Shown: positions 3,873 through 57,084, numbered from the stretch's first letter. The stretch is 64,000 bases of DNA from Candidatus Aenigmatarchaeota archaeon (GCA_016198755.1 JACQIB010000005.1:176931-240930), one strand, 5' to 3'. Translations and numbers: made by a program. The notes: generated by a model from the sequence alone, not told the origin.

Positions 3873-3890
3873 GGGCCCGTGGTCTAGCGG
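3873..3890 (+). other. orphan tRNA 5' fragment (acceptor 5' strand plus start of D arm), no 3' partner nearby
   Basis: GGGCCCGTGGTCTAGCGG then ATGC. Nearly identical to the 5' end of the tRNA-Pro gene at 44314 (GGGCCCGTAGTCTAGC...ATGC). No anticodon arm or T arm follows. Confidence 0.5.
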
Positions 3891-6329: not shown

Positions 6330-6462
6330 GGCCCGATGGCTCAGACTGGTTAGAGCACCACACTGATAATGTGGGGGTCGAGAGTTCAAAGCTCAGGGGG
6401 ACGTTTCCCCCTACAGCCCTACCCCCTCTTGGTGGAGCTGGAAAATCTCTCTCGGGCCACCA
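6330..6462 (+). tRNA. tRNA-Ile (anticodon GAU) with a ~55-nt insertion in the T-loop (about position 59/60), CCA encoded
   Basis: GGCCCGA TG GCTC AGACTGGTTA GAGC A CCACA CTGATAA TGTGG GGGTC GAGAG TTCAAA[6391..6445]T CTCTC TCGGGCC A CCA. All stems pair perfectly once the bracketed block is removed. Confidence 0.85.
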
Positions 6463-42930: not shown

Positions 42931-44151
42931 TTATGTTTTAGCTGGAAGTAAAGAAACGGTCCCATTAAATTCACCGCCGCCAAGCCTTGACTGGACTTCT
43001 CTCACTGCACTTGCAAGTTCACTGTCATCATCTATTCCATAAACAAATGTTTTATTCAATTCACCCATTCTTATGGTTAGGTCTGCAGAATGCTGAAGTT
43101 CCAAATCCTTATAGGGAGCAACTTTTCTTCCTTCCAGAACTGGAGTTTCAATTGCAGGGTTAGGGGGCTTGTGTTTTTTTACCTCAAACGGGCTTTTTGT
43201 TAGTCTTTCCAATTCTTTCACAACAACTTCAGGCTCAGCTTTAACTGTTCCATAAGATTGAAAACCATCCATACTGAAAATCCTTTCTGCAAGCTCCCCT
43301 GTTTTTCTGGCAAGCCATTCAAATTCCATATCCACCATCTGGAAAAGGTTTTGCATGTTAACAAATCCTCTCTTATGCAGCTCCTTTGCTACTCTTCCGA
43401 CAAAAGCTTCCTTTGCCATAAGCCCAGGATCCCTGTAAAACTTTTCGTACATCTTTGTACGCGCTTCCAAAAACTCCCCAACAACATGGGAATCTCCAAA
43501 AACAATCCTTCCATTAACTATAGAAACAGATTCGAATGGATCTGGCATATATCTATCAGTCCATGTAAATGGTAGTTGGCCTAATTTGCATGCATCCAAA
43601 GCAACGTAACTCCACCTGTCCACATCTATCGAATTTTGACTGTTAACCAGCTGCCCAAGAGGTGAGCTATCTTTCCCGCGCACAAGGTTTACAACCCTCT
43701 CTTTCTCTATCCCGTGCCTTCTAAGGTATTCTAAAGCTTTCGGGGAACTGTTAAGTACTTTTTCAAAGAGATCCTCATCACTTATCCCTAATGCTTTTGC
43801 AACAGAATCTGAAAGAGGAGGGGATGCTATATCATGCAGCATTGCCACTGTTACTGCAAGTTTTCTATCCAACCCAAGTGTTTGAGCTATATAATCTATC
43901 TGCGTTGCAAAAACCAATGAGTGGAGATAGCGTGTGTGTTCTGCGGGAATGCCTTTTGCAGTCTGGCTAACCAGCCCAAGTTGTTTTACACGACTCAGTC
44001 TAGCTACTGCTGGAATAACACCCAATTCCCTGTAAAGGCTGCGTCCATAGTTTATTATAGTACTTGTTTGCGGAACAACAACTGGATCATCAATCCTATC
44101 CATTAATCGCATCCATTGTCTTGTGTTGCTGTATCGTGTAATTTCTCTCAT
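42931..44151 (-). CDS. HD-domain phosphohydrolase-like protein
   Basis: Track ORF trimmed to ATG 44151 (MREITRYSNTRQWMRLMDRIDDPVV). H..HD pattern (RYLHSLVFAT...MLHDIASPPLSD). The upstream 29 codons are antisense to tRNA-Pro. Confidence 0.6.
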   Translation of the reverse strand: MREITRYSNTRQWMRLMDRIDDPVVVPQTSTIINYGRSLYRELGVIPAVARLSRVKQLGLVSQTAKGIPAEHTRYLHSLVFATQIDYIAQTLGLDRKLAVTVAMLHDIASPPLSDSVAKALGISDEDLFEKVLNSSPKALEYLRRHGIEKERVVNLVRGKDSSPLGQLVNSQNSIDVDRWSYVALDACKLGQLPFTWTDRYMPDPFESVSIVNGRIVFGDSHVVGEFLEARTKMYEKFYRDPGLMAKEAFVGRVAKELHKRGFVNMQNLFQMVDMEFEWLARKTGELAERIFSMDGFQSYGTVKAEPEVVVKELERLTKSPFEVKKHKPPNPAIETPVLEGRKVAPYKDLELQHSADLTIRMGELNKTFVYGIDDDSELASAVREVQSRLGGGEFNGTVSLLPAKT

Positions 44152-44184
44152 AATTCTACATGGATGCAAAAGCTTAAGTGCACA

Positions 44185-44314
44185 TGGTGGGCCCGCTGTG
44201 ATTTGAAATCCTGCTTTGCAGACACAGGTCGCCAGCATTTCGGCTTCTCTTAAGCTTGAGTGTCCCCAAGCTGGTATCCTACCATTCTAGCGCATGTAGC
44301 TAGACTACGGGCCC
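44185..44314 (-). tRNA. tRNA-Pro (anticodon GGG) with three putative introns (13, 26, 15 nt), CCA encoded
   Basis: Minus strand: GGGCCCG TA GTCT AG[CTACATGCGCTAG]AATGGTA GGAT A CCAGC TTGGGG[ACACTCAAGCTTAAGAGAAGCCGAAA]T GCTGG CGAC CTGTG[TCTGCAAAGCAGGAT]TTCAAAT CACAG CGGGCCC A CCA. Confidence 0.8.
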
Positions 44315-44336: not shown

Positions 44337-44346
44337 GTTTAAATAT
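44337..44346. promoter_or_regulatory. near-palindromic TATA element (GTTTAAATAT) positioned for both tRNA-Pro (minus) and the 44368 gene (plus)
   Basis: About 23 nt from the tRNA-Pro 5' end and about 23 nt from ATG 44368. Confidence 0.45.
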
Positions 44347-56898: not shown

Positions 56899-57084
56899 TG
56901 GTGCGGGGGAAGAGAGTTTCACTGCGCTTTGAACTCTTGAAGGGCCTGCGCCCACAGGATTTCTTTCATTGCGCGGCTTTCGGCCGCAGCTCTGAACTTA
57001 GGGCATGCCTTAAGTGTCGCAGACCGTTGTCTCCTGCGCATTTTCTGCTCGCGCGCAGCGCGCACCGAGCTTTGCTACCCCCGC
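56899..57084 (-). tRNA. class II tRNA, most likely tRNA-Leu, 186 nt with insertions in D-loop (19 nt), anticodon region (65 nt total) and T-loop (12 nt); CCA encoded
   Basis: Minus strand: GCGGGGG TA GCA AAGCTCGGT[GCGCGCTGCGCGCGAGCAG]AAAA TGC G CAGGA [72 nt] TCCTG T GGGC GCAG GCCC TTC AAGAG TTCAAA[GCGCAGTGAAAC]T CTCTT CCCCCGC A CCA. Long variable arm and A73 point to Leu. Anticodon candidates are UAA (CTTAAG) or CAG (TTCAGAG). Confidence 0.75.

Follow-up and report, generated by a model that had tools for sequence, protein, structure and literature searches.

A tRNA-Pro(GGG) gene with three probable endonuclease-spliced introns in a DPANN archaeon of the Aenigmatarchaeota

The window analysed here, a 64,000-nt stretch of DNA from Candidatus Aenigmatarchaeota archaeon (GCA_016198755.1 JACQIB010000005.1:176931-240930), carries on its minus strand a 130-nt locus (window 44185-44314), read directly from 44314 to 44185 as GGGCCCGTAGTCTAGCTACATGCGCTAGAATGGTAGGATACCAGCTTGGGGACACTCAAGCTTAAGAGAAGCCGAAATGCTGGCGACCTGTGTCTGCAAAGCAGGATTTCAAATCACAGCGGGCCCACCA, that raises a simple question: is this a tRNA-Pro(GGG) gene and, if so, which parts of it are introns? 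An earlier, sequence-only reading had proposed three archaeal endonuclease-spliced introns, one in the D-loop, one at 37/38 and one at 53/54. Our analysis supports that reading and moves only the boundaries of the D-loop intron, by 2 nt. Nothing at the locus is apparent to standard tools. On the unspliced sequence ARAGORN returns no tRNA, with or without its intron mode, and Rfam returns none at the gathering score, nor at E≤10 in a 700-nt search; the rival intron-free fold that a covariance model might have offered did not appear. Because these tools miss the gene, the MAG seems to be without tRNA-Pro(GGG). The host, which is a DPANN archaeon (Aenigmatarchaeota) and not a member of the Thermoproteales, is represented by an assembly of 0.89 Mb in 6 contigs (40% G+C, 89% complete). 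We are confident that the locus is a single tRNA-Pro(GGG) gene whose precursor of ~130 nt carries three introns, is cut by an EndA of alpha and beta subunits and is joined by RtcB into a 76-nt tRNA. The exon–intron anatomy and its immediate flanks are as follows.

44338..44343, minus strand: TATA-like box TTTAAA, read directly; probably the archaeal promoter
44298..44314, minus strand: exon 1, GGGCCCGTAGTCTAGCT, nt 1-17 (acceptor 5' strand, U8, D-stem 5' strand, start of the D-loop)
44285..44297, minus strand: intron 1, ACATGCGCTAGAA, 13 nt, after nt 17 (17/17a), in the BHB-consistent register
44264..44284, minus strand: exon 2, TGGTAGGATACCAGCTTGGGG, nt 17a-37 (rest of the D-arm, anticodon stem 5' strand, GGG, G37)
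44238..44263, minus strand: intron 2, ACACTCAAGCTTAAGAGAAGCCGAAA, 26 nt, canonical position 37/38, hBHBh'
44223..44237, minus strand: exon 3, TGCTGGCGACCTGTG, nt 38-53 (anticodon stem 3' strand, 4-nt variable loop, T-stem 5' strand)
44208..44222, minus strand: intron 3, TCTGCAAAGCAGGAT, 15 nt, position 53/54, hBHBh'
44185..44207, minus strand: exon 4, TTCAAATCACAGCGGGCCCACCA, nt 54-76 (T-loop, T-stem 3' strand, acceptor 3' strand, A73, encoded CCA)
44168..44171, minus strand: TTTT run, read directly; possibly an archaeal terminator
42931..44151, minus strand: neighbouring HD-domain protein gene (ORF and Pfam)

The TTTAAA box sits 24-29 nt upstream of the mature 5' end, and the orthologous genes described below have TATA-like boxes of the TTTATAAA or TTTTTAATA type at roughly the same distance; the TTTT run lies 14-17 nt past the end of the CCA. 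The neighbouring gene has its Pfam HD domain at residues 103-192 of a 435-aa longest ORF (42931-44238), which enters the tRNA gene by 54 nt and so masks it, as the earlier reading had noted. The true start of the HD gene is likely the ATG at 44151 rather than the position 44238 at which the longest ORF begins. For annotation the locus thus carries two consequences: an ORF caller stretches a protein gene over tRNA-Pro(GGG), and ARAGORN and the Rfam tRNA model overlook this gene along with most other tRNA genes of the host genome.

With the three blocks removed the picture changes. ARAGORN calls tRNA-Pro(GGG) on the block-free sequence and folds it into the canonical 76-nt cloverleaf that had been claimed, with the 7-bp acceptor stem, the CCAGC/GCUGG anticodon stem, U33 and G37 and, toward the 3' end, the CUGUG/CACAG T stem, the UUCAAAU loop, A73 and CCA. 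Because ARAGORN recognises the block-free sequence with every one of these features, we take the locus to be a real tRNA-Pro(GGG). Group I and group II introns have no Rfam match in the window, and the inserts are just 13, 26 and 15 nt long, whereas the ribozyme core of a self-splicing intron spans hundreds of nucleotides. The four exons are colinear on one strand within 130 nt, an arrangement other than that of a split or permuted gene, and the three introns, at 17/17a, 37/38 and 53/54, place it among multi-intron tRNA genes.

In the archaeal bulge-helix-bulge (BHB) motif a 4-bp helix lies between two 3-nt bulges that hold the splice sites and, at 37/38, anticodon bases 1-2 sit in that helix (PMC4090602). 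From this geometry it follows that each cut falls 2 nt 3' of a helix strand. Our own scanner applies this rule, asking for a 4-bp helix, a cut 2 nt 3' of the helix on each strand and a spliced product that forms a cloverleaf. At the real locus it finds 3 solutions only, differing solely in the D-loop register; all 3 include the 26-nt (44238-44263) and 15-nt (44208-44222) blocks, so that the blocks originally placed at 37/38 and 53/54 stand in every BHB-consistent solution. The D-loop block first proposed, 44287..44299, occurs in none of them, its place being taken most likely by 44285-44297 (13 nt). Free deletion can create artefacts, three such deletions could make many sequences tRNA-like, and run genome-wide the scanner does give a few implausible 6-intron "genes". 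A chance origin is nevertheless wildly improbable: 0 of 1000 dinucleotide shuffles of the locus interior yield any scanner solution, compensatory changes are present among the relatives, and the exons are colinear and near-identical with those of an intron-less paralogue and eight orthologues. As to the origin of the inserts, a search of the rest of the host genome for further copies of these introns gave only chance-level short matches (≤2 or ≤5 mismatches), and hence nothing that would assign them to a transposing family.

Two paralogues in the same genome (G000) and eight orthologues in related genomes provide the comparisons on which the remaining arguments draw. The paralogues are:

G000:C5:174358-174503, minus strand: tRNA-Pro(CGG), with introns at 17/17a (50 nt) and 53/54 (20 nt, CGGCGCAAGATGCCCAGGAA) and none at 37/38
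C3:35943-36018: tRNA-Pro(UGG), intron-less, with the same D-loop, variable loop and T stem as Pro(GGG)

Outside the anticodon arm the exons of Pro(CGG) are identical to those of Pro(GGG), and its introns use the same CUAG and CAGG helix strands in strict hBHBh' form; since it also has a 53/54 intron, that site is not unique to Pro(GGG). Exon 1 is identical to the 5' end of Pro(CGG) and of the G003, G010 and G017 orthologues, and exon 3, from GCTGG on, is identical to Pro(UGG). GGG, CGG and UGG make up the usual three proline isoacceptors, and ARAGORN, BLAST and the scanner find only one GGG-anticodon gene in this 89% complete assembly. CCU and CCC account for 5072 of the 10795 proline codons in long ORFs (47%), and a working GGG tRNA is therefore to be expected.

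A BLAST search of 61 related genomes found an orthologous tRNA-Pro(GGG) gene in 8, and their intron sets, assigned by the same BHB rule, differ from genome to genome:

G000 (the study locus): introns at 17/17a, 37/38 and 53/54
G003: introns at 17/17a, 37/38, 45/46 and 59/60
G004: introns at 17/17a, 37/38 and 59/60
G017: introns at 19/20, 37/38 and in the T-loop
G002: introns at 37/38 and 59/60
G005: introns at 37/38 and 45/46
G010: an intron at 37/38 only
G011: an intron at 17/17a only
G006: introns at 37/38 and one in the T-loop, assigned on the gene short of its 3' end

Spliced tRNAs from this series are nearly uniform. The G000 product is identical to that of G003 at 76/76 positions although their intron sets differ, and it departs from G002 by one D-loop base and from G010 by one compensated T-stem pair. 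Orthologues that lack a given intron display the junction directly: G011, without the 37/38 intron, has the loop TTGGGGT (UUGGGGU), exactly the predicted spliced product, and in G010, G002, G005 and G006, all without a D-loop intron, the junction sequences match the splicing prediction. The G010 orthologue scores 50.8 bits on the Rfam tRNA model (gathering score 29). Conservation and covariation of this anatomy are seen across 10 spliced or intron-less proline tRNAs, in which 99.5% of cloverleaf cells pair and 8 pairs are changed on both sides; 0 of 500 shuffles equal this, and slid controls have ≤2 both-side-changed pairs. The pairing statistic is partly built in, because the scanner that selects the spliced orthologues demands a cloverleaf, whereas compensations in the acceptor stem and the uninterrupted arms are independent of that requirement.

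One member of the series deserves separate mention. The 219-nt G003 gene (L009:1405-1623, minus strand) accommodates four introns that satisfy the BHB rule, at 17/17a (48 nt), 37/38 (28 nt), 45/46 (16 nt) and 59/60 (51 nt); this is one above the published maximum of three introns per tRNA gene (PMC4033280, PMC8450103).

Examining each junction for a BHB motif, a check that the sequence-only reading had suggested, shows that 3-4-3 motifs can be drawn at 37/38 and 53/54, and at the D-loop a relaxed helix-loop only. At 37/38 the helix UUGG(32-35)/CCGA, flanked by the bulges GG|A and AA|U, follows on the anticodon stem. Seven orthologues have a homologous intron, G011 being the exception, and across the 8 precursors 100% of the cells in the stem, the 4-bp helix and the first inner pairs can pair (slid controls ≤50%); in the alignment one inner pair is compensated and one U-G pair becomes U-A. 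The same segment (window 44238-44286, minus strand) can also form a competing 8-bp helix, conserved in all 8 aligned precursors, in which A29-G36 of the anticodon arm pairs with the 5' part of the intron (AGCUUGGG with CUCAAGCU or CCUAAGCU). In the naked precursor this helix is 5.5 kcal/mol better (minimum-energy fold −50.7 kcal/mol, against −45.2 with the BHB forced), the 37/38 BHB has a probability of ~0 in the thermodynamic ensemble, and RNAalifold on the 37/38 intron predicts the competing helix instead of the BHB. We retain the BHB on two grounds, its potential to form in every orthologue and its status as the established substrate; the competing helix may simply reflect the way anticodon and intron usually pair in canonical introns, the BHB conformer then being picked out by the protein.

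The 53/54 motif has the helix CCUG(48-51)/CAGG between the bulges UG|U and AU|U; on the inner side a CU/AG helix closes a GCAA loop, on the outer side lies a GA/UC helix, and the motif is the sole BHB-consistent solution that the scanner finds in the T arm. Its CCUG/CAGG helix is present in the local minimum-energy fold and has an ensemble probability of 0.15 in the naked precursor.

The register of the D-loop intron requires more care. The "TAGC...GCTA hairpin" described earlier as lying within the block is in fact an exon–intron helix, the 6-bp UCUAGC/GCUAGA, which closes a 7-nt loop and has a pair probability of 0.997 in the folding ensemble. As a splicing substrate intron 1 has a relaxed bulge-helix-loop form: the helix is CUAG(12-15)/CUAG(intron), the 5' site lies within a 7-9-nt loop and the 3' site in AA|U, there is no inner helix, the outer helix amounts to at most one G-U pair, and three registers, of 11, 13 and 15 nt, fit the rule. 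Comparison with relatives makes 44285-44297 most likely the intron. Its removal would leave the mature D-loop AGCUUGGUA, which is the exact D-loop of the Pro(UGG) paralogue and of the G010 and G006 orthologues; the form AGYUUGG is common to the uninterrupted D-loops of five relatives, including AGUUUGGUA in G002 and AGCUUGGAUUA in G005, and to that of intron-less tRNA-Pro(UGG). Longer introns at the same position are informative as well. In Pro(CGG) (50 nt), G003 (48 nt), G004 (29 nt) and G011 (29 nt) the 17/17a intron is a strict hBHBh' built on the same CUAG helix, and three of these introns, those of Pro(CGG), G004 and G011, also have an inner helix of 9 bp that borders immediately on the bulge and the CUAG strand and so pins the cut to the position after nt 17. 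Compared with these hairpin introns, the 13-nt intron appears to be a collapsed version that has lost its inner hairpin.

That the same gene might be cut at 44287-44299, with the D-loop AGAAUGGUA as the outcome, is improbable. This register arises by sliding along the repeated CTAG, which leaves the junction ambiguous in sequence, and ARAGORN accepts the resulting product too; but under none of the five equivalent junction shifts do both cuts have a 4-bp helix 2 nt before them, the register is absent from the output of the strict scanner, and the uninterrupted D-loops of the paralogue and the orthologues are all AGYUUGG, never AGAAUGG. Applied to the relatives, moreover, this cutting rule makes their products differ (AGAAUGG, against AGUCUGG in G004), whereas the BHB rule makes them all AGCUUGGUA. 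The neighbouring registers of 15 nt (44284-44298, D-loop AGCGGUA) and 11 nt (44286-44296, D-loop AGCUAAUGGUA) rank as less likely alternatives, and we think it quite unlikely that either is used. Both obey the 4-bp helix rule and both leave a cloverleaf, and without an inner helix the precursor alone does not set the register; yet neither D-loop is found in any uninterrupted relative, and the inner 9-bp helix of Pro(CGG), G004 and G011 sets the cut at 17/17a. We therefore continue with the 13-nt register at 44285-44297.

So weak a D-loop motif, the weakest possible and like a collapsed form of the 29-50-nt hairpin introns at 17/17a, also invites the reading that the gene is decaying, its 13-nt insert no longer removable and CCU/CCC being left to Pro(UGG) or to another copy that falls within the ~10% of the genome missing from the 89% complete assembly. 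We consider this hardly likely. A second GGG gene was not found in the assembly, the exons match G003 at 76/76 positions, the stems are intact, and both the CCA and the TATA-like box are present. Nor is so short or so relaxed an intron without precedent: archaeal introns of 11 to 129 nt are on record (PMC4090602), the ARMAN-2 EndA cuts a helix-loop (BHL/hBH) substrate in vitro (PMC3239211), and bulge-helix-loop (BHL) motifs have been described as substrates that broad-specificity EndAs cleave (PMC5829648).

The spliced, functional tRNA-Pro(GGG) that we prefer requires enzymes, and genes for both an endonuclease and a ligase are present in the assembly:

C1:37751-38800: EndA pair, alpha and beta, each with both EndA domains (PF01974/PF02778)
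G000:C1:37751-38290 (= L001:1465-2004, minus strand): EndA alpha, the downstream gene of the pair, 178 aa, Tyr and His present
C1:38289-38800: EndA beta-like, the upstream gene of the same pair, 171 aa, without the His and without the insert
C5:42797-45628, plus strand: RtcB ligase (PF01139, E=1e-141)

An endonuclease of the broad-specificity type, which multiple noncanonical introns had been said to need, is what these genes appear to encode: two EndA genes lie adjacent to one another, and the catalytic subunit carries the DPANN "L3" loop insert. The upstream product, lacking the His and the insert, is accordingly read as a structural, beta-like subunit. The alpha subunit has its best structural match in the catalytic alpha of N. 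equitans (3IEY_A, E=9e-29), and its segment from Tyr to His (both included) is 18 residues long, compared with 17 in N. equitans alpha and 11 in M. jannaschii. The position of the insert is that of the DPANN "L3" loop, which has been associated with increased tRNA gene disruption (Kaneta et al. 2018, PMC5829648).

A complication is the catalytic lysine. Where M. jannaschii has Lys156, alpha has Ala (AHNIRAN vs AHSVRKK), and among its best 80 relatives (L033-L112) 73 have Ala, the rest Ser or Thr, and none Lys; Ala occupies the position in all 15 loci with a neighbouring beta gene, and Ala, Ser or Thr in the other 65. These 80 are mostly labelled Candidatus Aenigmatarchaeota, the others being unclassified archaeal MAGs and a few Micrarchaeota or Nanoarchaeota, and the highest identity of alpha to its relatives in public genomes is 68%. 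With the lysine absent, activity cannot be assumed from sequence alone; conserved lysines of the L3 insert (P-[LI]-K-[RK]-G-x-K) might stand in for it.

Two side observations concern the enzyme genes. Of the 80 loci (L033-L112) only 15, those of the closest relatives, have a beta-like gene immediately upstream of alpha, and the remaining loci have a single EndA gene within 1.5 kb; the restriction of beta to the closest relatives suggests that the two-subunit arrangement may be a recent duplication in part of the phylum. RtcB matches its profile in two pieces (1-50 and 48-426) that lie ~1.4 kb apart within a single 1010-codon open frame, which looks like an intein inside the tRNA ligase gene.

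Taken with the established biochemistry of EndA and RtcB, which also underlies our view of the order of the cuts and of the exact D-loop register, these elements can be assembled into a proposed pathway. A precursor of ~130 nt would be transcribed, probably from the TATA-like box near −26. Exon–intron pairing at 37/38 and 53/54 would form standard bulge-helix-bulge motifs, and that at the D-loop a relaxed helix-loop only. The two-subunit EndA would cleave each strand 2 nt 3' of the central helix, after which RtcB would join the exons. The expected product is a 76-nt tRNA with the D-loop AGCUUGGUA, the anticodon loop UUGGGGU, the CUGUGUUCAAAU segment and the encoded CCA, which would read CCU and CCC.

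The gene is far from alone in being interrupted. In the window 3 of the 4 tRNA genes are, as had been counted earlier: Ala(CGC) is intact, and Pro(GGG), Ile(GAU) and Leu are interrupted. That this reflects a genome-wide trait, as suspected, is borne out by ARAGORN and the scanner together, which leave roughly 5 of at least 28 recognisable tRNA genes uninterrupted (Pro-UGG, Ala-CGC, Thr-UGU, Asp-GUC and Cys-GCA). ARAGORN finds 18 tRNA genes in the whole assembly, the scanner adds ~9 credible interrupted genes genome-wide, and the window holds two more with relaxed T-loop introns. These counts are approximate, because the genome-wide scan is a rough census that misses relaxed T-loop introns (Ile, Leu) and includes two 6-intron calls that are implausible. 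Kaneta et al. (PMC5829648) have already read the incomplete tRNA sets of new DPANN genomes as a sign of undetected disrupted genes.

The other interrupted genes of the window have insertions of a different kind. tRNA-Ile(GAU) (window 6330-6462, plus strand) has an insertion of ~55 nt in the T-loop after UUCAAA, and tRNA-Leu (window 56899-57084, minus strand, 186 nt) has a T-loop insertion at the same point that begins GCGCAG; their misfit with the strict 3-4-3 rule suggests a relaxed class of T-loop motif in the host genome. The window also contains, at 3873-3888 on the plus strand, an orphan Pro-type tRNA 5' end, GGGCCCGTGGTCTAGC, with 1 mismatch to exon 1 (0 expected by chance). Downstream of it an AT-rich LAGLIDADG ORF extends into tRNA-Ala(CGC), and the orphan end may be the relic of a tRNA gene broken by a homing-endonuclease element.

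Across 9 genomes, then, the same tRNA-Pro(GGG) has 1 to 4 introns distributed over six sites (17/17a, 19/20, 37/38, 45/46, 53/54 and 59/60), with a mature sequence that is identical or nearly so. A family-wide interpretation would be that tRNA introns here turn over faster than the tRNA itself, that the 13-nt D-loop intron is a collapsed remnant nearing loss and that an EndA without the canonical catalytic Lys serves the process; we offer it tentatively, as a view whose chances we put slightly below even. If true, such fast turnover implies active intron gain and loss in a DPANN phylum. Targeted full-text literature searches retrieved no paper describing intron gain and loss of this kind, or multi-intron tRNAs, for Aenigmatarchaeota. 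Whatever its cause, the series offers a clean comparison, one tRNA with the same mature sequence and different intron sets, and the 13-nt and 15-nt introns are minimal substrates for probing the cutting range of a DPANN L3-loop endonuclease.

The Pro(GGG) gene is a new example of a gene type known in other archaea and involves no new mechanism; with it the Aenigmatarchaeota joins a short list of multi-intron tRNA lineages (Thermoproteales, ARMAN-2). In the Thermoproteales, tRNA genes with up to three BHB introns are well established (PMC4033280, PMC4390854, PMC8450103), and published summaries name as three-intron examples the Pyrobaculum islandicum pre-tRNA-Pro(UGG) and the P. calidifontis pre-tRNA-Glu(UUC) (Sugahara 2007/2008, via PMC4390854, PMC4033280, PMC8450103). 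The likeness extends to three BHB introns within one gene, some canonical in position and others not, an endonuclease of the heteromeric (alpha-beta)2 type, a genome-wide trait and an intron content that varies between close relatives. Those organisms, however, are hyperthermophilic Crenarchaeota whose EndA has an N-terminal crenarchaeal loop (CSL/L1), whereas here the genome is that of a DPANN archaeon, 0.89 Mb in size with 40% G+C, and the EndA insert lies between the catalytic Tyr and His (L3).

Closer in lineage is Candidatus Micrarchaeum ARMAN-2, also a DPANN archaeon, in which the pre-tRNA of the same isoacceptor, Pro(GGG), has noncanonical introns at 53/54 and 59/60 in strict hBHBh' form (Fujishima et al. 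2011, PMC3239211). Both T-arm sites are reused in the present family, 53/54 in G000 and Pro(CGG) and 59/60 in G002, G003 and G004, and many disrupted tRNA genes are common to both hosts (56% in ARMAN-2, PMC3239211). ARMAN-2 differs in its three-unit epsilon2 EndA with a loop of its own (ASL/L2), in place of separate alpha and beta genes with an L3-type insert, and in its phylum; the gene studied here, from the Aenigmatarchaeota, has D-loop and 37/38 introns as well, three in total. On the side of the enzyme the nearest counterpart is the (alpha-beta)2 EndA of Nanoarchaeum equitans (PDB 3IEY), which has a separate non-catalytic partner and a Tyr-to-His insert of the same length class (GVIPKKGKRSEREH here vs GVKPLKRGPKSAGEH). 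It keeps the catalytic Lys (RKK) where the alpha subunits of the Aenigmatarchaeota have Ala, or rarely Ser or Thr (RAN), and N. equitans is best known for split tRNA genes rather than for multi-intron genes of the kind described here.
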